Positions 1,581 to 28,465 of a DNA stretch of 32,000 nucleotides are shown here, piece after piece. The position numbers and the translations under genes are program-made. The stretch comes from Candidatus Saccharimonadota bacterium (lineage in GTDB: Bacteria > Patescibacteriota > Gracilibacteria > Absconditabacterales > Absconditicoccaceae). The notes below the pieces were generated by a model, which had not been told where the DNA came from, searched no databases, and saw only the letters and a program-made list of their open reading frames with translations. The DNA lies in contig CP006913.1 in the NCBI GenBank assembly GCA_000503875.1, forward strand, positions 750,001 through 782,000. Direction: 5' to 3'. Within the stretch, counting starts at the first letter, position 1. Every line of letters begins with the position of its first letter.

Positions 1581-2969
1581 ATGCGAAAAAAATTGTTCAT
1601 GTGAATATGCTTAGTATTTTTTTTAGCGTTATTTCACAAAGCAATAGCCGTCGATGTTGACCTATACTTAAGTATTGTTAACTCCTTTTCTTGAACGGTA
1701 ATAGTTACATGAAATAATACGATAACTCAAAACTGAATTACTTATACATCGACAACAACACCATCCCTCCAAATTTTCTCTAATGTTGGATCTAGATATA
1801 ACATATCATGAGATCTTGTATCAGCAATAAGTTGATCTCAATCAAATCCTTATACAATACAAACGATAATACAGGTAAACAAAACTAATGCTATAAATGA
1901 CATTTTTCCTATATTTTGGAGAGAAATAGAACTTTTAACACATCCAAAATTAAAGATATTTGTTGATACCTTAGGTCCAACACTACCTACTATCATAGCT
2001 CCAATAAACAATTCAAATGTAAACGGTCCTATAGTTATTTCTCGAACACCATCAACAGATATTGGAGCATGACTAAAAGAATATATAATTCTTATTTCCA
2101 CCGATCAACTATTTGCGACCACAATATATTATCAAACGACAACCAATAATGAACAATATATCAATATGAATACCTTCAACGAAGGAAAATTATATCTCAA
2201 AATTTTGGCAAAAGATGAAGTAGCAAATATCAGTGAATCTCAAACGCTGACTATTTGCAATAAATGTAGTGCTCCTCCAAATTGATGAGGTGGTGGCTGA
2301 TGAACATATACTCCTCCAACACAACCAACAGATATCCAACGAATAACAATTATTGAAAATTGGGAACAAAACCAAGAACTTACACAAAAAGAAGAACCAC
2401 AAATTTGATTCATCAGTAATCTTTTGTACGACGAAGAACTTTTGGATGCATATAAATATGCATATAATCTAGGCATAACAACAATGCCAACGGCATATCA
2501 AGCAAACCTTAAAGGGAAATTAGTAAGAAAAGATTTGGCCAAAATGATTTCAGAATATGCTATCAAAGCATTAAAACTCAAACCAGACAATAGATTAACA
2601 TGTCTTTTCAATGATTTGGAAGATGAAACATTAGAAACCAAATATTACACAAAGCTCGCATGTAAATTATGATTAATGGGACGACATGCCGATGGAAAAG
2701 AAAAATTAAATGATTTTATGCCAAATGAAGCAGTAAATAGAGCTCAATTCGGAACAGTTTTATCTAGAACAATTTTTTGAGAAAAAAACAACGTAGAAAC
2801 AGGTGAAAACTATGAACGATACCAAAAACATCTCCTAGCACTCAACCAAAACAATATTATGAAAATTATAAATATTCCTTGGATGATAGAACTGAGATGA
2901 CGAGTAATGCTTACTATGATGAGAGCAGATCCAAACCGTGAAATCCAACATACTTCTGCGAAACAATAA
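1581..2969 (+). CDS. Secreted protein with poly-Gly linker and C-terminal SLH-like repeats
   Basis: I translated from ATG 1581 (MRKKLFMGICLVFFLALFHKAIA signal) codon by codon to TAA 2967-2969 and the only interruptions are TGA. The linker PPN-GGGGGGG-TYTPP lies at 2283-2303. The C-terminal segments (YDEELLDAYKYAYNLGITTMP..., YYTKLACKLGLMGRHADGKEKLNDFMPNEAVNRAQFGTVLSR) resemble S-layer homology repeats. Confidence 0.6.
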
Positions 2970-6443: not shown

Positions 6444-7043
6444 CTATCCCAAAGTTGGATCAATCATGTATTCTGCTTTTACTGAAGAGACCTTTTTTAA
6501 ATCAAGATCCTTTGCCGTAAAATAATATTTTTCTCCTTTCCAAAGCAAGAAAGCCCCCTTCTCATCGTTACCAAAATGTGTCATATCAAAATTTTCTCCC
6601 CAATATGCAGAATCATGCACTCGATCACAAAACGACTCTTTTTCAAACACAAAAGGCTGATTCACCATCTCATACAAATCCTTTTCAAAGTCATATTTCC
6701 AAACACTATGTTTTTGTCCCAAATAGATATATCAAATCTTAGGTAAGATGCCTTTTTTCACAAAATAACGGTACAAATCTATCTTCGTACACGAAAAAAA
6801 ATTCACCGTTTGCTTACGCAAATGCAGAAGATGGGCCACCAGATTCCAGGTCAACGCTCAAACCCTGAGGTTTGTAAACCCTCCTGGCCCATTAACCAAA
6901 AACACCTGATCAAAGGGAGATTTTTTTGCTCGATCAACCAGTGTTGGCCCCAAAACCTTCTCAATTCCATTGCGCTCCAAAAAAATCTCCCCCTGAGCAT
7001 CACATATATGTACTTTATCACTCGAAATATTACAGAATAACAT
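6444..7043 (-). CDS. tsaB: tRNA threonylcarbamoyladenosine (t6A) biosynthesis protein TsaB-like
   Basis: Track ORFs 6858-7142 and 6444-6722 share one frame and join through TGA. The motif VNGPGGFTNLRV-G(TGA)-ALTWNLV matches the TsaB GPGSFTGLRIG motif. I chose the start at MLFCNISSDKV (7041-7043). The C-terminal half is atypical. Confidence 0.6.
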
Positions 7044-7191: not shown

Positions 7192-9777
7192 ATGAAAATT
7201 CGCAAAAAATTATTAGGATATCTTACGGTTATTGGGTTGTGACTAGCTGCATTTGCACCATCAAGTATGATGGGAAATACTGCACAAGCACAAACTCCAG
7301 AACAAACTGCAGCAGCACAAAAAGCTACAGAAACAGTTACTGTAGAGCAAGCTCTCAATGAATTTTGGGTACTTATCGATATTGGATTAAAATTAATCTA
7401 TATTGTGATCTGGCCTATGCTTTTCCTTGCAGGAATTGCTTTAGATAACTCAATGGTTTACGGTTCTTTTTTCCATATGGATGCTCCATTATGGTTTTTT
7501 TGGAACATGACCAAAAACTTTGCCAATTTTGCACTAGGATTTATTGTGCTTTTTGCAATTCTCAAAGGAATCTTCAGTTCATTCTGAGATAAAGGGAAAG
7601 ATGCTCGAAATCCCATAGAAATCATCAAAAAAACATTAATTGCTGGAGTTCTTATTCAAGCAAGTTGGTTTATTTTAGCAGCTGTTGTGGATATTTCAAC
7701 TATCGCTACCTACGCTGTCGGATGAATGCCAATGGCTTTATTAAATAACAAAGATATCAAATCAACTCAAACAAAAATTCGACAAACAGAAAGCCACTTA
7801 GAATTAAATAATATAAATAAGCTCCAAGAAGATGTATTCAGAGTTTGGTATAAAACTAATTTAATATGAGAAGATGGAAGCAAAACCGGAATTACTGTTT
7901 CTCCTTGTTTAACACAAAAATTATGAACAAATACTTATATTGTAGGGAGAAAATATGGTGACGCAAAATTCAGTAGCCAAGAAATTAGTAAAAATTTACC
8001 TGATGATATGAAAATTTCCGATGATGAAGAATTTCTTACAAGATGAATTTGTATTTTTGGAAATAAACCCTACTTTTTCAATGAATTTCCCAACATAAAA
8101 TCACGAATAAAAACAAATAGTGAATATCAAAGCATATTAAATGCAAATCTAAACGCTATTTGAAATTTTACTGATGATTTAGCAAATTGTAGATTTATTA
8201 TAAACCTAAATAACGAAAATTGATCAGAAAAACCGACAAGTTGTCAAGAAGCAATAAATAAATTGAGATGAAATTTAGATGAAACCACAAAACAATTTAT
8301 AGAAAACAATGATGATTTGGCTTGGCTAAAAGATTGATCAGAAGAATCTATAGAAGCAGATTGATATCTTGAAAAAATAACACCAGATACTTTTTATTCA
8401 GCATATGGATCAAAAGCGGGTTTTTCTCGATTTTCCAATACACTTGCACCAACCGTTTCGCAAATTATCGATAAATCAAAAGGATTTGTAGGTCCATTTG
8501 TAACTATTTATGCATCTATTATGGATTTTGCTAATTTAAGCGACTCAAATTCAAACACTAGTTCGATAGGAAAAAATTTGGGAAATATGATGATTAGAGT
8601 TGCTGTTGCAGCGGGATTAGTTTTTCCTCTTATAGCATTGGCAGTAGTATTATTTATTAGAATCTGATTTTTGCGAGCAATTATAGCTACGAGCCCTCTA
8701 TTAATTTTAGCGAATGTATTTAAGGACACTATTAAAATAGATCTTTGAAAGCATTTTACGATAGAAAATATTCTTCAAGCAATATTTGCACCAGTAATAA
8801 CAGTTTTTGCTCTAAGTATCTCTATGATTTTTATGACGACACTGTCAAATTCATTGGTTACCGATAACATCGACAAAGTTAATATTATGCAACAATTTGG
8901 AGGTGAATTAAAGGATGAAGGTGAAAATACTCATTTAACTTTGGCAGGATTTACTATTATTTATCCAAAAATTGTTGATACATATGCAGGAGCGACAGGA
9001 GATTGGTTCTCTTGGATACTTCTTTCTTTTTGTTGAATAGGTATTATGCGATTTATTCTTTTCGCAGCAATCAAAGCAAGTTGAACAATTGGATCAGTTG
9101 GTACAAAGATCAAAGATTTCTGAGAAAATGTATTCAAAACAGCTCCTATTATTCCTATTGGTGGCGGTGTTGGATTTGGAACATTATCTGAAACAATGAA
9201 TGTTGAGAATGCAAATAAAATGCGAGAAAATAAAATTGGTTACAAACAACAGAAAGAAGATATGGAAACATATATGACAGATAAATTTGCTACTGCAAAA
9301 TGAGATGAGTATGGTACCGATAAAACATTTAGTGAGAACGAAAAATCAATACTTCAATCTACAATAAATGGTGGAGATTCGAAACAAATAGAACAAGTCA
9401 TGGTAGATAAATGATTTGTAGGCAAAAACTTATCACCAGAAGAAAGAAAAAAGAGAATTGAAGAACTATACAACGAATCAGGTGATTTCCAAGATATAGT
9501 AATAAGTAATTATGATAATAAAGGTATACAAGCATTATTAGGAGAGAGTGTTATCAACAAAGGAATAACAACAATAATAAACAATGAATTAGATTGAACA
9601 TTTAATAGCAAAGAAGAATTAACAAATAAATTGAAAAATATAAATGAAAACAAAAAAAATATTATTGAAAAAATGAAAAACGATTTTACAAAAGAAATAA
9701 CAATAAAAGAGGGCGATGAAACAACTAAAATAAAGATAACAAAAGATACTAACAACCAATTAAAAATCACTTCTTAA
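7192..9777 (+). CDS. Large polytopic membrane protein, paralog A (861 aa; possibly TrbL/VirB6-like, tentative)
   Basis: I checked the frame line by line from ATG 7192 to TAA 9775-9777 and the only interruptions are TGA. The signal peptide is MKIRKKLLGYLTVIGLGLAAFA. There are several hydrophobic helices, a Cys-containing ectodomain and a charged C-terminal tail. It shares conserved blocks with the next gene. Confidence 0.7.
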
Positions 9778-9797
9778 TTCTTATTATATATAAATAC

Positions 9798-11669
9798 ATG
9801 ACTAAACTATCTCACATCAAACAACGATTATTATCTTCTCAAGGACAAAAAATAAGTCTGACTTTTTTAATCGTTGGAGTGTTTTTCTTTGCATCAACAT
9901 TTGCTCAAGGTAGTCCAGAAACTAATACGCAAACATCAAAATTATTAATCAATGCTCAATATGTTATTTGAGAGCTTACTAAACTTTTTTCTCGATCTTG
10001 GATTCTATTGGCAACACTTGCAGGTAAATTTATGACAAATGATATGGTATATGGTTCATGGTTACATTTAGATGTATATCTTTGGAAACTTCGAAATATA
10101 TGCAAAAACTTTGCCAATTTTGCGCTTTTGGGAATATTACTTCGAGAAATTATTCAATATGTTACAAAAAAAACGGGAAGCATACAAAGTATTGTAACCA
10201 AATCAGTAATTGCGGGAATATTAATTCAAGCAAGTTGGTTTATTATGGCAGCATTATTGGATATTTCTACAATTGCTACTGCTGCAATTGGAAGTTTTCC
10301 AAGTCATTTTATAGATAGTAACGCTTTCTCAAAATGAACAATGAGCAATGAAATAGATTTAAATATAAATGCTTACAAATTGATATTTGATAAAAATATG
10401 TCGCCTACATTAGAAGAAACAAATGAAAAAGATAAAACAACGACAACAGTCGATGAATTAATTCAGAAAATTATGCCAAAAAATGATTCCGTTGCAGGAC
10501 CATTAATATATATTTGAGCATCAACATTAAAAATTCAAAATGCATTAATTCGTCCCAAAAACCAAGATATTAATGTTGAAAAAGTATTTACAACATCTGT
10601 TTTACAATTTCTTGCTATAGGAATTTATTGTATCACACTAATTTTACTTTTGATAACAAATATTATTAGAGTAGGATTATTATGGGTGATTATACCTCTT
10701 TCGCCAATTTTGGTGCTTATGTTTACCTTATGAAAATCAATGGGGAAAGAAGGTATTGCCAAAAATTTTGATATAGGAGTTATCCTCAATGCTATATTTA
10801 AACCAGCTATTTTTACCTGAGTACTTTCTTTGGTCTTAATTTTCATCGTAAGTATGCAAAATATTATGACTAGTGGAAACGATCAAAGTTTTACCATCCA
10901 ATGAACAACTTTTGGTTCTTCAGGAAGTCTAGCAACCATGGAAGTAAAAGATTTATTCAAAACAAGTATCAATGACACAGTTTTCACACAAGCAGGAAAT
11001 ATGGGGAAAAACATTTTTTCAAACATAATTATTTATTTTGCAACCATATTTTTATTACGATATCTCGTAAAAATAGCGGCAACTTCTGGTGGCTGAACTA
11101 TTTGAGAAACTATGACAAAAGCAACATGATTGGTAGAAAATATGGCTAGTACCACTCCAATTCTATGATGATATTCTGTAAAAGCATATATGGAAGGATC
11201 TAATAAAGCAATGGTAAATATGTGAAGAGCCGCTGGAGTAGATTTAAATTATTGATCTTCTAATTTTGGTAAAATGGAAAATGAAGAATATAGAAAATGG
11301 TTAAGTACAAAACTTGGAGAAGAACAACGAAGAAGTGGAGACATTTCTGCTTTGGAAACAGCTAGCAATTTTAGCTCTTTTATGAACAAAACAAATAGTA
11401 TTTTAAAAGACGCTCCATTATCATATAAAGATTCTCAAGAAACATTTGAGAAACGAGAAACATTATTTAATAAAATTTTGGTCAAAGAAGAATGAAATGT
11501 TTTCATGGAAAAGAAAAAGAATTATTTCGATGATCCAACAAAATTAACCTTACAGTGATTAAATAAAGAATGATTTAAAAAATTACACGAATTATTAGGC
11601 GGTACTGATGGAAGTATACCTAAAAATTACGATGAATTTAAAAAAATAAAATATGGTAAGGTAGGATAA
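9798..11669 (+). CDS. Large polytopic membrane protein, paralog B (623 aa; possibly TrbL/VirB6-like, tentative)
   Basis: ATG 9798 to TAA 11667-11669 is open apart from TGA. It shares blocks with paralog A: MVYGS(F/W)xH(M/L)D, KNFANFAL, IAG(V/I)LIQASWFI(L/M)AA..DISTIAT, and R(I/V)G(F/L)L...SP(L/I)L. Two 21-nt stretches are identical between the genes (7512-7532 = 10103-10123; 7654-7674 = 10224-10244). Confidence 0.7.
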
Positions 11670-11689
11670 CAACCACTTGCATCTCATAC

Positions 11690-11734
11690 AAGGATATGTA
11701 TAAACTGAAAGTTTTATATATGTCCTTTTTTTTT
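11690..11734 (+). terminator. Rho-independent terminator
   Basis: A 15-bp stem AAGGATATGTATAAA / TTTATATATGTCCTT (two G-U pairs) with an 8-nt loop is followed by a run of about 9 T. It starts about 20 nt after the stop of paralog B. Confidence 0.65.
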
Positions 11735-11735
11735 G

Positions 11736-12578
11736 ATGAAAAAATTATTTCTTTTTGCAATATCTAGTATCACAATATTCTCAGGATTTACCGTAACTTA
11801 TGCTTACACTCCTACCAGTCAAGATCAAATAACTTTGGTTCAACTAAAAAATACTCTCGATCAAATAAATTCAGGTAACGTAACAGATATCTGGAATTTT
11901 TCTACACAGATCAAAAAACTACAACCTATGGTTGCCAACGATCCTAGAATAACATATCTTCTCCAAGAACTACATACTCATCTGTATGGACAGTTCTCAA
12001 TAGCAAAAATTAAAACTAAACAAGCATCAAAATCTGGTTGGAATAATTTTTTGGCTCAATATAATACTGGAATAGTCGCAATTTCTATGGAAGATAAATG
12101 CTTTTGACGATATAATACGCTTGATAATATTAGCTTTGCAAATAATTTCCCGACGGCACTCACTGTTGCTACTCGATACAGAGAAAGTCACTGTGGTTAC
12201 TATCTACCAAAAAATGGAGATGGTCCGTTTCAAATACTAGCAAAAGAATATGGAACTGGAGAAATCACAGAAGAAACTTTCACCCAGAGTGTCCAAGATT
12301 TTATCGATTTCTCCAAAACAAAATACGCTAACTACAAAAGCAAAGTAGATATCAATATCAGTTATACAGGAACAGATCTAAACAGTATAATATCACATTG
12401 AGGTTTTTATAATGGAGGAACAATTTCAGGAAGAATAGTATTTCCTAATGCACCAAAATATGTTTATGAAGGATATGCTAATTACAATTCTTGACAATAC
12501 GCTTCATGAGCTATAAGACATGGACTACTGCCAAAATTTCTCAAAACCTTAGAATTCGAATTAAATAACTATTATTAA
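11736..12578 (+). CDS. Secreted SLT-domain lytic transglycosylase-like protein
   Basis: The signal peptide is MKKLFLFAISSITIFSGFTVTYA. The family-1 lytic transglycosylase motif order is present: RYRESHCG (E-S), GDGPFQI (GLMQ-like) and G(TGA)-GFYNGG (AYNxG-like). There are 4 TGA and the stop is TAA 12576-12578. Confidence 0.6.
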
Positions 12579-12598: not shown

Positions 12599-15500
12599 AT
12601 GGCGAAAAAAATCAATACCGAACAACTGATCACCTCACAATTTGCTGAAAAAATAACCTTTCAGGGAGTTAGAACACATAATCTAAAAAACATAGATATC
12701 GAACTCCCAAAAAACCAAATAATCACCATCACCGGAGTATCAGGATCAGGTAAATCTTCACTCGCCTTCGATACTATCTACAAAGAAGGACAATTTAGAT
12801 ATATAGAATCACTTTCTAGTTACCTCAGACAATTTTTTAATTTGGGAGAAAGGCCAGATATTGATCATTGTACAGGACTATCCCCTGCCATCGCTATCGA
12901 ACAAAATAAAAAAACAGGAAATTCCAGAAGTAGCGTAGGAACACTTACGGAAATCGATGATTATTTAAGACTTCTTTTTGCAAAATTAGGAGAGCCATAT
13001 TGCTATAGCTGTCACAAAGAAATCAAACCACAAACTATAGAACAAATTATAAATGAAATAAAAGAAGAATATACAAACAAAAAAATCTATCTTCTCCAAG
13101 AATCATGATGATTCGAAACCAAACTCCAACTTGCAGAATTCGTTAAAAAAAATAGAAACCGCGTAGAAAAAGGTAAGGGTTTTACGAGATATTTGATCGT
13201 TAATAAAAAACAAAATAAAGAAGAAATTAGCGAAACAATCAATAATGCAGCAAAAATTAAAGCCAAAAAAGCCAAACCAACAAAAGAGCAAGATAATTTA
13301 GAACCTATTGAATACTTCTATTTAGAAACACCCAACGTTCCTGATATCTATTTTCCACTAAATATTTATGGAATTTATGATCGTATCACGATAGAAGACA
13401 ATAAAATTCCAAGAATCAAAGAAGATATCATAAAAATTCTAAATGAAACCAAGAAATTCTGAATATTTTGTTCTGAAATCCCAGATCAAATTATCAAATG
13501 GTATACCGATAAAATGTACTGTGCAGAATGTAATATTACGTATCCAGAGTTTACAACTCAATATTTTTCGCCAAATCGTCAAGAATGAGCTTGTCTAAAC
13601 TGTTTAGGACTTGGTGAAATTTTGCAAGTAGATATGGATAAAATATTAGATCCAGAAAGCCCTTATAGCAAAGCTATTATGCCATGGAGAGATTCTAATT
13701 TGGGACAATGAATTTTACAAAAACTTGCTCAAAAATATAGTATAGATCCAGATAAATTTTGGAAAGATTTACCAGAATGGTTTCAACATGTAGTACTTTT
13801 TGGTGATAATGAACTTTTGAGAATACAGTACAACGCCAAATTTATGAGTATTTCTTACAAAGGAATCGAAGAAATCATCAAAGATCAATACGCAAAAGGG
13901 CTTCTCACAGTAGATTTCCAAGCTATGTTAGATATGAAAACTTGCCCAGAATGTGAAGGAAATAGACTAAAAAAAGAAAGTTTAAATGTATTTTTAACAA
14001 TACCATCAAAAAAATCAGACTCCAAAAGGTATAATATTGCTGATCTTCAAAAACTTCCTTTAAACGAACTTATTATAATCCTGACGACATATAGAGAAAG
14101 TAGCAAAAAAGATACAACTCTTGTTTGAAGAATCACGCACCCTCTCATTGATAGGTGTCAAACTATCTGAGAATTGTGACTTGGTTATCTTATGCTCAGC
14201 AGATGAATAGACACTCTTTCTGGTTGAGAAATTCAAAGACTTAGACTAGCAAAACAACTCGGAAACAAACTGACTGGAATTATTTATGTGCTAGATGAAC
14301 CAACTATTTGACTTGATGATAGAGAAATTCAAAGAGCGATAACTTCTATCAGGAAACTCAAAGAAATGTGAAATACTATCATCGTAGTCGAACACAATGA
14401 AGAATTTATAAAAGCATCTGATCGGGTTGTAGAAATAGGCCCAGGAGCTGGAGATTTCTGAGGAGAACTTTTATTTAGTTGATCTTATCCAGATTTTCTC
14501 AAATCAAATACACTAACTGCCCAATATATTACAGGAAAAAGAAAAATACATATAGACTTCGAGCATAATCCGACCAACAAGAAAATACACATTAGAAAAG
14601 CAAATAAATACAATCTTCAAGACGTTTCTGTAGATATTAATCTAGGAAGTTTTACGGTAATTACTGGCCCTTCGGGAGCAGGTAAGACTACGCTTATGTA
14701 CACAACACTTTACAGATTTCTCAACGAAAAAACCAAGTTTGTGCAAAGTTATATCAGACTTCAACTTCTCAAAAAATGACGAAACTGGCAAGAAATCCTG
14801 GCTGCTCCCGTCCTTCATAAGGATGAATATCAACATTACGAAAATCTCGCATTGCAAGAATTCTACAAAGATTTGTGAGTTGATACGATCACGGGGCACG
14901 AAGAAGTAAAAAATGTAATTTACGTTGATCAGACCAGTATCGGGAAAACACCTCGTTCGTGCCCCGCTACCTTCATTGGAACCTTCGATCACATCAGACA
15001 ACTCTATTCTGGAACCACAGAAAGTAAATATCTTGGATTCAACGCAAGCTATTTTAGCTTTAACTCCAACAAGGGAGCATGTACTGCCTGTGATGGATAC
15101 GGCTACAAAAAGATTGAACTCCAATTCCTTCCTGACACCTATATCCCCTGTGATCTTTGTAAAGGAAAAAGATATAAAAACGAAATTCTCGAAATCAAAT
15201 GGAAATGAAAAAGCATAGCCGAAGTTTTGGAAATGTATATTGATGATGCGTTAGAATTTTTTAAAGAAATTGATCATATCAGAGAAGATCTAGAATTAAT
15301 GAAAAATATAGGTCTTGGCTATTTGAAAATGGGACAACCAGCGCATACGCTTTCAGGGTGAGAGAGCCAAAGAGTAAAACTGGTAAAACATCTCCTCAAA
15401 TCTTACAAATGACATTCACTCTATTTCTTAGACGAACCAACCGTTGGTTTACATATGGCAGATATAGAAAAGTTACTTCAAGTAATTAGAGAATTTCTAA

Positions 15501-15601
15501 ATAAATGAGATACTATTCTGATGATAGAACATGACCAAAACATTCTTCAATTCGCAGATAGTGTAATTCACCTAGATGAAGGAAAATTGATAAATAAATA
15601 A
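12599..15601 (+). CDS. uvrA: Excinuclease ABC subunit A
   Basis: The protein is 1000 aa when read through TGA. Motifs seen are GVSGSGKSSLAFDTIY, GLSPAIAIEQ, a zinc-finger CxxC pair, LSG-G(TGA)-E signatures at 14225-14227 and 15359-15361, a second Walker A GPSGAGKTTL, and DEPTxGL twice. Confidence 0.95.
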
Positions 15602-19466: not shown

Positions 19467-22400
19467 ATGAAACAAAAGATTTTTTTGGGAATTGGAATCT
19501 TATTATGTAGTATCATTGGATTTTCTATTTACAATGAATTTATGACAAATCACACGTATTATTACACAATGTTTAGTGATCGAACAAACTGGAAAATTAT
19601 GATTCGATGAATAATTGCAATTTTGATTCCTTTAGGATATATATTACGAAACAAACAATTTTCACTTAAAAAGTTTTTAATTACTCGACTTCCTGCTGGA
19701 CTTACCATTTTCGGTCTTGCTCATATTATCATCAAAGAAGGTATTATTTGATCTTCGGGCTTTGTCATGATAATAATCAACACCTTATTATTATATTTTC
19801 TCTGATTATACCTTATTCTAGGAATTACTAGTGTAGGACATATGATAAATAAATATCGAATTCGTTTGCCTCAGCAAAGAATACAAGAATTGTTCTTAAA
19901 TTTTGGTATAGGATTAGGTGCCTTTTTATTAATAATTAAAGTCTTAGTAAGTTTTACTATTTTATATTGAGCAGTTACTTGGTTACTCTTTATTTGATTA
20001 GGGGTAGCTATCTACTTTTTCAGAAAAGATTTAATAAAATATCAATTAATTATCGAAGAACAGTTTGATAGTATCAAACAAAGCTCACTCAAAAAAGATC
20101 CAATTTTGTGGATTGGACTGGTTTTGGTAGCAATTTCACTTTTATATTATTTTTATGGGTTTCATCTTTCTTTTATTCCTTATTCTACGGCTTGGGATGC
20201 AAATCATGCCTATATGTATGTACCAAAAGTAATAGCTGAAAATCACGGAGTACTACGAGGAAACCTTTGAGTAGCCGCAACACCACCAGAACTTCGACAT
20301 GGATTTATAACTTTTTGGTTTAGTCTTATTGGTGCTATCAAATGGTTTTGGTTGGGTCCAGATACTGTAGCGGTTGCTATGAATTTCCTTAGTGGAATAT
20401 TTACACTTATTCTTGGATTGTGAACAATAAAAGAAATCATTAATTATTTTACAAAAAAAGAAACAACCTGAACTAAAATAGCATTCTATTTATGACGGTT
20501 TTTACTCATTCTATGGCTTACAAGCGGAATGTGAGCATTTCTCGTTTTCGTAGACAACAAAACCGATCTTTGAGTTATGGCGATCACTATGTTAGGAATG
20601 CTTTCATGATTAATATTTCTCAATTATATAAAAAACAATAACGAACCACGTCAAAAAGAAACACTGAAATATATCGTTATTTCTTGAGTATTCTTCGCTC
20701 TTGCAACTATGGCAAAACCAACAGCGTTTATTGATATCGTATTATTCGGATTACTTCTGGTAGCTCTATGGATCAATTCGGTTATCGCAATTTGATTTGG
20801 TGTTATTGTAACTGGAATGACAGGTATTTTGCAAATAGCCAATGCTAGAGATCTCATCAGTCAAGAAACAGGAAAACGAGTAGTAATTGCTGGAATAATA
20901 ATTGTTATCTGTGGAATTATTTATACTTATTTTCAAAAACATTTTAAGAATCTGAAAACAACATTAATTAATATTGGAATATGGGTAGGAAGTATACTTA
21001 TCACGCTTATATTATTTAAAGGAACGCATCTTATTTATTCTCAAATACAAAACAATGATTTTGGTGGTTGAAATTTTGTAAAAGCATTATTATTAGCAAC
21101 AACTGGTGAAAACAAATTAGAAGATCAAACAACTATTGATCAATTACAAAAAAACAAACTCTGATTAGAAACTTGCGAAGCTATGAGTTTTACAAAGGAA
21201 GAATTAGAGAAAAACAAAAAAAAATCTATTGTATGAAATGAAGATGTTGGAAGATATGTAGGATACGGTTGGAAAGAATTTTCAAAAGGAGATGGACTAA
21301 ACATTTGATATTGAATACTTAGATTGATATACCCTCAAAATGATACTTGTTACGGTTTAAATAAAAATGCAAAAATATTATGTAAAAATAGTAACATGGT
21401 ATTGTCTTTTAATATTCCAGGGTTAAAAGGCGTTTTGAATACATTAGATTCAGATTCAGAAAGTTATAAAGTTTTAAAAAAAGCTCTTCAAAACGCAGAA
21501 AATAAAGGACAAGTAACTTCTGCGGTTGAATATAGAGATGAAATTTTAATGATAAAACAATACTACGAAAGTCGTTCAATTAAAACAGAAAATGGAAAAG
21601 TTTTTGTTCCATATAGATATATTATCCCATTGAATATTTCATTCAACTGGTCATTACAAAATCTAAGTAGTTATTACACAGACATAGGTTTCATCTGGTT
21701 ATTTGCTATGGCATTTATTATTTTTGGTTTAATTTATTGATGTATCAAAAAAGATAAGACCCTAATAAGTATAAGTAGTATTGCAATCTTATGATGGGCT
21801 ATTTGGTGGATGATTTGATGATGAATTCTCTGGTATGGATTGGGATTAATTATTCGAACAATTCTATCTGCAATAATGTATGTAAATCAAATTTTCGACG
21901 ATAGTACTGAAGATACTGAGAAAAACATGTTGTATTTTTTCCTATTTCTTTTTGCTATTTGGGGTATAATCCAATTATTTTTCAATTTTATTAGAATTTC
22001 TTCCCAAGGATCATGAGGACCATTTGCTCGATACAAAATGAATACAGGAAAAACTATAGAACTTGATGCAAATTTACAACAAAAAGAAAGTATTGTAAAT
22101 AAATACGATTGGAAAGATGTTTTTGATCTTCAATTTCCACATTACAATAAATTTATCGAATTAGTCAAAGAAAGAAAAGATGAAGATGGTGTTTTTATAG
22201 CAGGAACATATATTCAGTATTTTCTTCATAATCAAAGAAATATTAAACAAGATTGAATGTTATGACGATTACGAGAAGAAATGTCAGATAACGATAGTTG
22301 CAAAACTAGCCAAAGACTAAAGAACGCAAATATTAAATATCTTGTAATTGACCCAAATATTGGAACAGTTGGAATGGGCGAAGGAAATGAAACACTTTTC

Positions 22401-22982
22401 CACAGATTCTTTGCTAAATTAGATCCAGTAAGTGGTAAAATAGAATCTCATGGAGTTATTAGTATGCTTATGAAAATGAAACAAGAATGATTCTTAGACC
22501 TAATAAATACGAACAATTTAGGTACTAAATACGCATTAGAATTAGACGATAACAAATTGAAAGAATCTTTTGGACAGACACTTTCTCAAGAAGATCTTAT
22601 TTTTACAAGAGCAAAACTTTCTGTAGCTAGATATTTTCAAGATGCAAACAATTATATTAATTTTATTGCAAATATGTTTGTAGAAAGAATCCCTACTGGA
22701 AAAGCAATTGGAGATATAGCAGACGTTTATGGAAAAATTATCGATGAAGAAAAAGTTCAAACTGCTGCAAATACATTATTACAATCTGGACAAGTTACTA
22801 CTCAATTACTACAACAAACAACACAAAATCTTTCTCAAGATGAAAGATTGATTCTTGCCCAATATCTAAGCCTTTTCAATCTTAAAAGATCTGAAAACGC
22901 AAAACTTCAAGAAGCTGTTAACGGTATCTTAGGCCAAAGTTTAGGATGAAGTAGCCAAGTAATCGTTTTAGAATTATTATAA
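19467..22982 (+). CDS. Very large polytopic membrane protein (1171 aa), possibly a GT-C-fold glycosyltransferase-like protein (tentative)
   Basis: Track ORFs 20817, 21324, 22038, 22281 and 22557 are all in the frame of ATG 19467. Codon-by-codon reading gives no TAA/TAG until 22980-22982. The protein has more than 12 hydrophobic helices, a loop YSTAWDANHAYMYVPK and a soluble C-terminal region of about 330 aa. Confidence 0.7.
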
Positions 22983-25707: not shown

Positions 25708-27552
25708 TTATAGGTTAATTCCATAGGTTTCCAACGACTGTTTGAACTGTTCTAAATGATAATTAGAGAGATTCTGTTTACAAGTATTGTTATCATCTTT
25801 AAGTAATTTCAAAATCACTGAGAAATTATCAAAATTTTGAGCAATATCTTTAAGTTCTAATTCAGACAATGGAGCTTTTTCAAGGTTTTTTAGAATGTAT
25901 AAGATAAAAGAGTTTATAAGTGTTTTCGTTTCACTTTTTTTAAAAGTAGGCATATTTAAAATCAATTCAGTTCATTTAATCTGAAGTTTAATTTTGCTAT
26001 AACTAATATCATTTTTACATTCGGAAAATTTATCAATTTCATCTTTGAATTCTTCCAAAATCGACTCCTGAACTCAAGTATTAATCTGTAAAGATCATGA
26101 TGTTGATAAAAAATTAACTCATGAAGCATAAGTAGTTAATGTTTGTCCATACAAAGTTGCCAACAAAGTAAATGAAATAGCTCCTGAATTATTGCGTTTC
26201 AAAGCAAGAGCTGCTTTACTTTCATTTCCTGCAATATCTTTAACAGCTATTCCCAGATCATAATCTGTATTTAGCAACAATGTTGGTAAAGAAAACATAT
26301 GTCATGTAGAAGCGCCTGTCATAGCAAACGCCCAACCATTAGTAGTATTCTTAAGTAAAACGAATGATGTAGCACGAGTAAGTTCTGATGTAGTAAATGA
26401 GAAATTATATCCAGACAACACAAAACCTGTTATTTGCGGATAGATTAAATCGTAAAATAATTGAGAAACTCCTGTGTTCGTTCATGTAAATCCAACAGAA
26501 TCTTGATAAGAAATAGTATAACCAAGATATCATCCTGATAAAGAGGTTGGTAATACATAACGATATGTATAGTGATTACCTGACAATCCAGAAAAAACTG
26601 CTTGTCCAGAACCAATACTAACACGAACTCATGTTAATGATTCTGATGCATCAAAATGTAAAACAATAGGAGCGCCTACACCAACCATTCCAGATAATGT
26701 GCCAGATGATGATAAAGAAATATTAGAAAGTGTTGGCTTTTTATTATCAATAGTAAAGTCAGTTGTTTCAGATAAAATAGTATCTGGTTGTACCAACCAT
26801 CTCAAATGATATCCTGTCCATGAATTCATAGAAACTCATTGATACGTTCACATAACAAGTACTATTGTTTCACCACTTGAATTGAGTCCTGTTTGATTAT
26901 AAAATCCAGATCCCAAAAGTGTTGTATCAAAAATATATCCTGTTGTTGTTCAAGGAACTCTTGCTAAAGTAATCCATTCTTCATTATGATCATATAACTG
27001 AATATCAACGATTTCATCAGCACAGTTTGGGGAAATTGTCCACGAAATATTCATGATTCATGTATAAATAGTTGATGTAACTATATTTGAAGAAAATCAC
27101 AAATAACTACATTCTTCGTCCTCTTGAAATCAATAGTCTTCTGGATCTACCAAATCACCAGTTCATTCAACATTTCCTGTCAATTCAATATCTCCTGTCA
27201 ATTCAACATCTCCAGTTAATTCAATATTTCCTGTCAATTCAACATCTCCAGTTAATTCAATATCTCCTGTCAATTCAACATCTCCAGTTGATTCAACATC
27301 TCACGTTAGTTCAACATCTCCAGTTAATTCAACATCTCCAGTTGATTGAGATAATACCAAGTCATCAGCAAAACTAGCATCATGAGAAGCATTATATAAC
27401 ATATAACTTGTAGCAAAAAGCATAACTACTTTTGCAACGAGAAACATTCATCCTGCAAGTCATCAAAAAAATAGATACGTATGATGGTGCTTTTTTACGT
27501 GATCAACCACCCTTTTTGCATGGCGAACTACACTATGATTTGAATTTAACAT
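25708..27552 (-). CDS. Signal-anchored surface protein with (TGDVEL)n hexapeptide repeats and beta-rich (Ig-like?) body
   Basis: I checked every line in frame from 27552 down to TAA (complement of 25708-25710) and the only interruptions are TGA. The N-terminus is a basic region followed by the TM YLFFGGLAGGMFLVAKVVMLFATSYML. About 11 hexapeptide repeats follow. The rest of the 614-aa protein is T/S/G-rich. Confidence 0.7.
27145..27342 (-). repeat. In-frame 18-bp tandem repeat, about 11 units (ACTGGAGATGTTGAATTR; peptide TGD[VI]EL)
   Basis: Units lie at 27325-27342, 27307-27324, 27289-27306 and so on down to a degenerate unit at 27145-27162. Units 4-9 alternate in a 36-bp super-period (TGDVEL/TG[DN]IEL). 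Confidence 0.9.
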
Positions 27553-27634: not shown

Positions 27635-28465
27635 TTATTGAGAAGTTACCAAAGAAAACATAGTTTTCACCTGGCTAATTAATGGTTGATCAATTGCTTG
27701 TTGTGTTTTTGGAGAAGAAGATTCCAATAATTGATTTTTATCCTCTTCAAAATTACGAAATCAACGATACAATACGGCAACAAATTCACCTCTCTTAATA
27801 CGATCTTCAGTACAAAAAGCATGTGACAAATCTAAATTCAACATAGTACATACCTCTGCTTTAGTCAAAAATTTATTAGGAGAAAATATTTTTTTTCCAT
27901 CTTTTTGACTAATTAACTGATCAATTCGTTTTTGTTGTTCTGCATAAGCAACATATGGAGCATATGACGTATTTTGAGCAACATCAAAGAATCGTCCACG
28001 TAATGGAAATACAACAGGAGATAATTGTTTATTCTCCTTTGCAATGCGATATTTCACGAGCATCATAACCAACTCATACCTGCGAAGATAGTTGTCAGGA
28101 TAAAATTTCTCGCGATTTGCATCAATCACCCCAAGTTTAGCAAGAGCTAAGATTTCAGGAGCATAAAGATGTCCTTCTGTGTCAATCAAAGTTTTAGAAG
28201 TTTCTTCCTGCGAGTTAGAAACATCAGCAAAAAATGATTGATCAGCAGATAAGGAAATAATTTCCTTAAAAACACCCTGTAATCTTTCTGAAAGTTTAGT
28301 AACGAAAACAGAAATATCTTTCTTCTCCGTAACTACATTATCAGAAAAATAATCCTCCCCTGAAGATGCAAAGACACTTGAACCCAGGAAGAAAATAGAT
28401 AAAAAGAGTTTCGTCCCAGAAAAAAATCTGAGCATAAATCTTTTGGATAAAGAATAATGTTTCAT
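27635..28465 (-). CDS. Secreted protein with SLH-like repeats
   Basis: Track ORF 27761-28465 extends through one TGA to TAA (complement of 27635-27637). The signal sequence is FLSIFFLGSSVFA. Repeats of the form HLYAPEILALAKLGVIDANREKFYPDNYLRRYELVMMLVKY and SYAPYVAYAEQQKRID...FSPNKFLTKAEVCTML resemble the S-layer homology pattern. Confidence 0.65.

Follow-up and report, generated by a model that had tools for sequence, protein, structure and literature searches.

Introduction

Which protein takes the place of VirB6 in Gracilibacteria's type IV secretion system (T4SS)? The question is raised by a locus of candidate division SR1 bacterium RAAC1_SR1_1 (Absconditabacteria), where two adjacent genes, here termed A and B, encode large, related membrane proteins and are followed by a third gene, C, for a secreted protein. 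The three genes lie tightly packed and head to tail on the forward strand, in the order A-B-C, within a 32-kb stretch of DNA (contig CP006913.1, positions 750,001 to 782,000; G+C 30.6%), hereafter the window, and whatever is said below of RAAC1_SR1_1 itself refers to this window. A first-pass annotation, made from the letters of the DNA, had proposed that A and B resemble VirB6/TrbL channel subunits and that C is a family-1 lytic transglycosylase. It is, in our view, reasonably likely that A and B are very divergent polytopic membrane proteins of VirB6/TrbL type which arose as a tandem pair long ago and are specific to Patescibacteria using genetic code 25 (Absconditabacterales / GTDB class Gracilibacteria).

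Both Absconditabacteria and Gracilibacteria have tiny genomes and live as obligate epibionts or predators. Saccharibacteria cannot grow epibiotically without their T4SS genes, among them virB6. A survey of Patescibacteria (Quinonero-Coronel et al. 2025, PMC12102498) detected VirB4 in 2,417 of 3,035 genomes; the protein falls within the monoderm MPF-FATA class as a nested clade and mostly comes without a relaxase. In Gracilibacteria the same survey found VirB4, pilins and TrsD, and no VirB6, with TrsD and VirB3 not encoded near virB4; for Microgenomatia it calls VirB6 homologues 'scarce' and for Gracilibacteria 'absent', which it takes as 'suggesting extreme sequence divergence' (PMC12102498). 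A T4SS is mentioned neither in the RAAC1 genome paper (PMC3812714) nor in the Vampirococcus paper (PMC8080830).

Two paralogous membrane proteins encoded in tandem

The adjacent genes A and B were confirmed with the lengths first given (861 and 623 amino acids), as was gene C after them (Table 1), and the four short protein blocks quoted as common to both are all present in each. Residues 74-186 of A align with residues 68-174 of B at 46% identity (BLASTP, E = 1e-24), and residues 415-654 of A with residues 215-456 of B at 28% (E = 4e-14); judged by these alignments, A and B are true paralogs. As had also been described, the proteins differ in the insert between the shared blocks, which spans about 270-300 residues with four cysteines in A and about 105 residues without cysteine in B, and in their charged C-terminal tails, which are unrelated to each other. 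Two cysteines of the A insert, C239 and C287, are invariant in 77 family members. About six hydrophobic helices and a signal-like N-terminus were recognised in both proteins by eye and from hydropathy.

A was modelled with AlphaFold2 (AF2) from a 77-sequence alignment, giving a mean predicted local distance difference test (pLDDT) of 71 and a predicted TM-score (pTM) of 0.52. In this model the insert is confidently predicted as a mixed alpha/beta domain, while residues ~710-861 (window ~9320-9774; pLDDT ~88-93) form helices and a small beta-sheet, a fold that matches no family. The positive-inside rule and the cysteine pair together indicate that the insert is probably extracytoplasmic and suggest a cytoplasmic location for the charged C-terminal domain. 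Against this topology stands the signal-like N-terminus followed by three N-terminal helices, which conflicts with an outward insert; the two are consistent only if the signal-like N-terminus, or one of the transmembrane (TM) helices TM1-TM2, does not span the membrane.

Two 21-nt identities between A and B, noted in the first-pass annotation, proved to be exact. No other exact 21-mer is directly repeated in the window, bar an unrelated tandem repeat near 27.2 kb, and none at all occurred in 200 shuffles. Each is exactly 21 nt long and falls on an invariant motif; over a 37-nt span around the first, identity is down to 81%, and across the second conserved block it is 0.64 at the nucleotide level. 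Recent gene conversion was rejected as their source on these grounds, and for the same reasons the identities reflect purifying selection and codon bias.

In what follows, P numbers denote database proteins and L numbers denote loci or contigs of relatives. Word-indexed searches returned 95 proteins of A type, 41 of B type and 276 of C type. Where a source is named, it is SR1, Absconditabacteria or Gracilibacteria; nearly all of these entries are called 'hypothetical protein', and a single one (CobD_Cbib) has a recorded Pfam domain. One family member, P0093, bears the NCBI name 'type IV secretion system protein', the same generic name that the Prokaryotic Genome Annotation Pipeline gives to the canonical VirB6 of Agrobacterium tumefaciens (AtVirB6). 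An exhaustive profile search extended the family to at least 2,392 cluster representatives (50% identity) at E <= 1e-3, with 618 at E <= 1e-30; the best 150 of the 2,392 all had E < 1e-110. A-type proteins measure ~770-900 residues and B-type proteins ~600-650, and since genes of the two types still adjoin in the contigs that diverge most (L007-L009), the duplication is old and the pair has been maintained. The synteny of the pair with the transglycosylase-like gene, a point raised in the first-pass annotation, extends to the relatives, where C directly follows B in all 15 testable loci. Identity among C homologs is 45-87%, and C is thus much better conserved than A and B.

Linkage to T4SS genes in relatives

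Evidence for a connection with secretion came from the gene neighbourhoods of the relatives. In L001 and L002 a divergent operon located 0.3-1.5 kb upstream of A encodes a T4SS_pilin protein (PF18895), a pilin-like paralog and a TraC-like protein (PF26593), the last being VirB4-N/TrsD-like. In L008 the same pilin-pilin-TraC-like trio lies ~3 kb from A-B(-C), in a third gene arrangement. Over the three loci, the distance between A-B(-C) and the pilin and TraC-like genes is 0.3-4 kb. A scan of species-representative genomes for the TraC-like gene yielded 58 loci, 22 of which had ~10 kb of sequence on both sides. The pilin pair adjoins the TraC-like gene in 54 of the 58; A/B are present in 17 and C in 20, and among the 22 fully flanked loci A/B and/or C occur within 10 kb of the operon in 15. 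The operon and A/B/C are arranged either divergently, at ~1.5 kb, or convergently, at 5-9 kb.

Relatives of VirB4 numbered 567 in the related contigs. VirB4 is encoded nearby in one of the 58 TraC-like-centred loci, and the TraC-like gene lies directly upstream of the VirB4-type ATPase in 14 of 80 VirB4-centred metagenomic contigs. In one contig, L131, an A/B-family gene (E = 6.6e-109) is found ~1.8 kb from a TraC-like gene, which is followed by VirB4. The observed associations form a network in which A/B/C are linked with the pilins and the TraC-like gene, and the TraC-like gene with VirB4.

Two further genes were seen in these loci. Where operon and A diverge, the gene directly upstream of A encodes a conserved polytopic protein (~330-410 residues) that has a C-terminal globular domain. 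Within L072-L130, more than 20 contigs carry a reading frame of ~330-1,100 codons (most 330-450) at ~+1.5 to +3 kb after VirB4; these frames, taken from stop to stop, weakly match the pilin hidden Markov models (HMMs) built here (E = 1e-5 to 1e-10) and may encode another membrane component of the T4SS.

Similarity of the A/B family to TrbL and conjugal-transfer proteins

A family HMM was built from 252 A and B members, and consensus sequences emitted from HMMs were scanned against 24,736 Pfam and 18,950 NCBIfam models. The A+B consensus had PF04610 TrbL as its top Pfam match (E = 1.3e-4, 22.2 bits). With the consensus of the C-terminal TM block alone, TrbL was matched at E = 7.8e-5, TM4-TM5 falling on positions 86-190 of the 215-position profile; the corresponding stretch of A is nt ~8536-8865 of the window. 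TrbL was likewise the top match, in the same register, for two of six non-overlapping subfamily consensus sequences (E = 0.12 and 0.18). For the A consensus the top NCBIfam match lay in the N-terminal block (E = 4.9e-4) and was to NF045848 ('MMCAP2_0566 family conjugal transfer protein'), a conjugal-transfer family of Mycoplasma integrative and conjugative elements (ICEs). When 56 members were scanned singly, TrbL was touched by one (E = 0.0014) and NF045848 by two (E = 0.0013). Ten reversed decoys reached a best E of 0.03 and matched neither TrbL nor any conjugation family. The six hydrophobic helices found by hydropathy, together with a large loop whose orientation is predicted, agree with the layout of at least five TM helices and a large loop that characterises TrbL/VirB6 proteins.

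Because these sub-threshold signals converge, and because linkage to T4SS pilin, TraC-like and VirB4 genes is strong in relatives, VirB6 is the best-supported reading of A and B. The two proteins most likely work like VirB6, are probably very remote relatives of it, and probably constitute the VirB6 component reported as undetectable in Gracilibacteria. They would form the membrane channel or pilus base of a chromosomally fixed, Patescibacteria-type T4SS, and the maintained pairing suggests that they assemble, probably, as a hetero-oligomer. The Cys-containing domain of A would point out of the cell and the charged C-terminal domains into the cytoplasm. The remaining parts of the apparatus, namely two VirB2-like pilins, the TraC/TrsD-like protein and the VirB4 ATPase, would be encoded at separate loci in the class.

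Gene C and its putative role

C consists of a putative signal peptide, an N-terminal three-helix bundle (residues 28-109) and a globular domain (residues ~115-280). The invariant positions of the globular domain are C122, E150 (nt 12183-12185), C153, P164-F-Q166-I and Y225-N226, with E150, Q166, Y225 and N226 invariant in 49 diverse homologs. The motifs E150-S, G163-P-F-Q166 and Y225-N226-G-G follow the ES/GxxQ/YNxG order of soluble lytic transglycosylase (SLT) domains, and their spacing in C (13/61) is close to that in Slt70 (15/58) and MltC (15/66). Expressed as a regular expression, this constellation was found in none of 5,386 unrelated open reading frames (ORFs). The identity, order and spacing of the motifs thus bear out one part of the family-1 transglycosylase claim; the other part, membership by profile and fold, failed in Pfam, PHROGs, PDB sequences and Foldseek.

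These failures count against an enzymatic C. Pfam assigned no SLT or lysozyme family to the window protein or to 49 C members; the consensus of the C-terminal domain matched no Pfam family and the full-length consensus matched unrelated families only. A PHROGs scan gave no match, nor did PDB sequence searches with C and with the C-family profile, and a C HMM did not match VirB1, PrgK, Orf14 or TcpG. In an hhalign comparison with a five-sequence SLT alignment the four motifs came into register, at P = 0.11. The AF2 model of C was of good overall confidence (pLDDT 83.7, pTM 0.79), lower in the region 150-180, and when the full model was searched with Foldseek against PDB and BFVD, no match reached E < 1 and none was to a lysozyme or SLT.

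Set beside the SLT/VirB1 proteins (PF01464; Slt70, MltC), C shows both likenesses and differences. It shares with them the order and spacing of the motifs, a conserved Tyr after them, secretion and a position beside a VirB6-like gene, and it differs in having no profile match in 49 members, no lysozyme-like fold match, and an N-terminal three-helix bundle and two invariant Cys that are untypical of SLT domains. As a co-encoded secreted partner of A and B, C would most likely act as a VirB1-like, lysozyme/SLT-type wall remodeller with E150 as catalytic acid, and less likely as a structural element of a stalk or tip. On the motif evidence we put the assignment as an SLT-like wall hydrolase at a little short of even.

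That C is no peptidoglycan hydrolase, and is instead either a VirB5-like stalk or tip part of the T4SS or an unrelated conserved secreted protein, is a serious possibility. The confident model of a three-helix bundle plus globular domain favours it, as does the want of any lysozyme or SLT fold or profile from PDB, BFVD, Pfam and PHROGs, and the R388 stalk is made of VirB5 and VirB6 together, according to the title of PDB entry 8rt9. On the other hand, no VirB5/TraC structure appeared among the Foldseek matches either. A non-hydrolase would also leave unexplained four invariant residues with SLT-like spacing, the motifs in register in hhalign, a motif set absent from the 5,386 other ORFs, and a conservation (45-87%) far above that of A/B, as would be expected of an enzyme.

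Weighing the VirB6 assignment

Several results weigh against A and B as VirB6 proteins. Scanned against Pfam and NCBIfam, the window proteins A, B and C gave no match at E <= 0.1 to 1, so that the PF04610 match first expected for A or B did not materialise. The consensus sequences scored 22.2-23.0 bits against TrbL, under the gathering cut-off of 25.9 bits, and by the family's own gathering criterion A/B are outside PF04610. The N-terminal block of the B consensus matched the eukaryotic NEMP family at E = 1.9e-5; as this equally strong match is presumably spurious, scores of this size are not decisive for TM proteins. Two subfamily consensus sequences also weakly matched T4SS_pilin over the TM2-TM3 hairpin (E = 0.013 and 0.19), and the NEMP and T4SS_pilin matches of the N-terminal block are probably TM-hairpin noise.

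Structure comparison was no more favourable. Foldseek of the full-length AF2 model of A against PDB returned nothing below E = 1, and TrwI/VirB6 (8rt9_F) appeared at rank 30 (E = 7.9, TM-score 0.28), so the similarity to a VirB6 structure that the original proposal would predict was not significant. The 252-member HMM (hmmsearch --max) matched none of AtVirB6, PrgH, Tn916 Orf15 and TcpH, nor any ORF of pCF10, pCW3 or pTi, and the B-family profile matched no PDB sequence. A tblastn search of AtVirB6 against plasmids retrieved alphaproteobacterial relatives only, a set too narrow for a TrbL alignment for hhalign.

The genomic evidence also has its opposing side. An A/B gene was found in only one of the 80 VirB4 loci, and the synteny seen in relatives is partly phylogenetic inertia. 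The window itself holds no VirB4- or VirD4-type ATPase, as the first-pass annotation had said and as Pfam and phmmer with VirB4/VirD4 references agree, and Pfam found no pilin or TraC-like gene in its housekeeping surroundings. The VirB6/TrbL proposal is thus partly supported, by sub-threshold consensus signals and by T4SS linkage in relatives, and not by the formal profile and fold thresholds.

These results might be explained if A/B were a lineage-specific envelope pair unrelated to T4SS, acting for example in transport, in the biogenesis of the wall or S-layer, or as the anchor of a host-contact adhesin. The TrbL and ICE signals would then be TM noise, for which the NEMP match shows that spurious TM matches this strong occur, and the proximity to pilins would be inherited gene order. 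The failure of all formal family and fold tests fits such a pair, and so do the housekeeping context, with its RuvX/TsaB-like ... UvrA frame conserved in L002, L007 and L008, and the 7 of 22 fully flanked pilin loci that lack A/B/C. We nevertheless regard a pair unrelated to T4SS as rather unlikely. Two blocks independently have conjugation membrane families as their top matches among the 24,736 and 18,950 models, which the decoys do not. The pilin/TraC-like linkage persists over at least three gene arrangements although the proteins are only 25-35% identical, and L131 places an A/B gene in the direct neighbourhood of VirB4. Moreover, a class equipped with VirB4, pilins and TrsD, in which no VirB6 can be recognised, requires a protein of this kind (PMC12102498).

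Comparison with known secretion systems

Set against the TrbL/VirB6 proteins proper (A. tumefaciens VirB6, R388 TrwI), A and B are alike in being polytopic with a large loop and in a TM4-TM5 consensus that aligns to the core of the family, and their genes in relatives lie close to those for VirB2-like pilins and VirB4-related proteins. At 861 and 623 residues they are, unlike VirB6 (~295 residues), two to three times larger, and they have an N-terminal block of three helices peculiar to the family, a C-terminal domain that is long and charged and, in A, a Cys-rich insert. Unlike VirB6, they form an obligate tandem pair outside any virB operon, with a sub-threshold score and no significant fold match.

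The VirB6-like proteins of monoderm MPF-FATA systems, namely TcpH (pCW3), Tn916 Orf15, ICEBs1 ConG and PrgH (pCF10), offer a closer comparison in size. TcpH (832 residues) and Orf15 (725 residues) fall, as A and B do, within 600-900 residues and have an N-terminal polytopic region followed by a long soluble C-terminus. The envelope is of monoderm type in both cases, the N-terminal block weakly matches the Mycoplasma ICE family NF045848, and MPF-FATA systems have a wall hydrolase gene (TcpG, Orf14, PrgK) adjoining, just as the putative hydrolase gene C adjoins A/B. In contrast, the A/B family shows no HMM similarity to PrgH, TcpH or Orf15; its system is chromosomal, relaxase-less and dispersed, unlike MPF-FATA conjugative operons; and pilins of VirB2-like type accompany it, which are missing from MPF-FATA systems.

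Tandem, enlarged and divergent VirB6-like paralogs are also found in the rvh system of Rickettsiales (RvhB6a-e), which shares with the A/B system a reduced genome, host dependence and scattered T4SS genes. It differs in being P-type and diderm, with clear PF04610 domains and four to five paralogs. The parallel drawn at the outset with rvh holds as an analogy and not as a shared ancestry of the duplication.

Genetic code and surroundings of the locus

The window contains nine ORFs of at least 150 amino acids under translation table 11 and 31 under tables 25/4. UGA encodes the invariant Gly of both UvrA ABC-signature motifs (LSGGE/Q), and the code of the window is therefore code 25, with UGA a sense codon for Gly. 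Its 24 genes hold 204 in-frame UGA, 459 GGN and 72 UGG codons. Database copies of A/B/C-type proteins have often been translated with UGA as Trp, P0001 (= B) being one such copy; W then stands in place of G, and alignments and motif searches are therefore degraded.

The neighbours of A-B-C in the window are housekeeping genes (RsmE, Mur ligase, RuvX, TsaB-like, UvrA, GreA, NUDIX, HrcA). The gene for UvrA is a conserved syntenic neighbour which lies outside the functional module. Upstream of A, a 199-residue protein (6444-7043, minus strand) has the TsaB/YeaZ-like motif GPGGFTNLRVG and no Pfam match, and its gene is kept beside RuvX upstream of A in L002, L007 and L008. Promoter- and terminator-like sites (49, with 45.7 expected) were uninformative; a terminator scan found none between A, B and C, compatible with a single A-B-C transcript.

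That A-B-C is the remnant of an ICE or other mobile element, to which one might be led by weak similarities to conjugation proteins, is most improbable and was rejected: the window holds no integrase, relaxase or coupling protein, its G+C is even across the region (~0.28-0.33), the same core-gene frame (RuvX/TsaB-like upstream, UvrA downstream) recurs in distant species, species-level lineages with the family number in the hundreds (2,392 cluster representatives), and the T4SS of Patescibacteria are chromosomal and relaxase-less (PMC12102498).

Table 1. Features of the A-B-C locus (window nucleotides) and of the pilin operon in relatives (positions within each locus)
Feature	Position	Strand	Remarks
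Gene A, 861 aa, P148_SR1C00001G0698	7192..9777	+	100% identical to database protein P0042; A-type family member
A N-terminal TM block, aa ~55-186	7354..7749	+	DNxxVYGSxFHxD, KNFANFAL, IAGxLIQASWFxxAAxxDISTIAT
21-nt stretch encoding KNFANFA	7512..7532	+	exact match to 10103-10123 in B
21-nt stretch encoding IQASWFI	7654..7674	+	exact match to 10224-10244 in B
A variable insert, aa ~187-458, 4 Cys	7750..8565	+	alignment, AF2 model, hydropathy
A C-terminal TM block, aa ~459-655, TM4-TM6	8566..9156	+	invariant R490, P502, F532-x-P534
A charged C-terminal tail and domain, aa ~656-861	9157..9774	+	AF2 model
Gene B, 623 aa, B-type paralog	9798..11669	+	starts 20 nt past the A stop codon
B shared blocks	N-terminal ~9975-10322; C-terminal TM ~10560-11165	+	BLASTP vs A
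Gene C, 280 aa, P148_SR1C00001G0700	11736..12578	+	66-nt gap after B; 100% identical to this entry, on a 1,177,760-bp contig
uvrA	12599..15601	+	20 nt downstream of C; syntenic also in L002, L007
Pilin-pilin-TraC-like operon	L001 6695-9725; L002 6843-9803; L008 4146-7257; L010-L067

Other window genes encode surface or membrane proteins. A 614-residue product (25708-27552, minus strand) has an N-terminal TM helix and ~12 tandem TGD(V/I)EL hexapeptide repeats, with DNA repeats at 27182-27270 and immunoglobulin-like regions after them (weak Big_13), and is probably a surface protein. A 1,171-residue polytopic membrane protein (19467-22982, plus strand) has many TM helices and no Pfam match. Secreted or surface proteins are further encoded at 440-1489 and 1581-2969 (plus strand) and at 27635-28465 (minus strand), the second with a poly-Gly linker and the third with an SLH domain. 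The C-terminal domain of the 1581-2969 product matches, at 45% identity (E = 1e-31), a portion of a 949-residue L001 protein which has a faint SLH Pfam match and is encoded ~1.5 kb downstream of C.

Discussion

What is new here is a candidate for the 'missing' VirB6 of Gracilibacteria/Absconditabacteria, in the form of a duplicated, enlarged pair with a conserved secreted partner. More tentatively, we can envisage A-B-C as a class-specific envelope module which supplies the missing membrane core of the T4SS and whose purpose is not conjugation but contact with host or prey cells and transfer in either direction. Such a module would combine a heteromeric, enlarged VirB6-type channel and its outward, Cys-stabilised domain with VirB2-like pili and with a secreted protein of a new kind that either lyses the wall or belongs to a stalk.

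Standard HMM annotation systematically overlooks the A/B/C proteins, and their database translations are often wrong, UGA being taken for Trp or for a stop codon. If A and B are the missing component, the apparatus of the class gains the VirB6 part that was not found in the survey of Patescibacteria, and its T4SS would be split over several loci, with a duplicated and enlarged channel subunit. A, B and C would then be targets in the cultivated Vampirococcus and Absconditicoccus systems.

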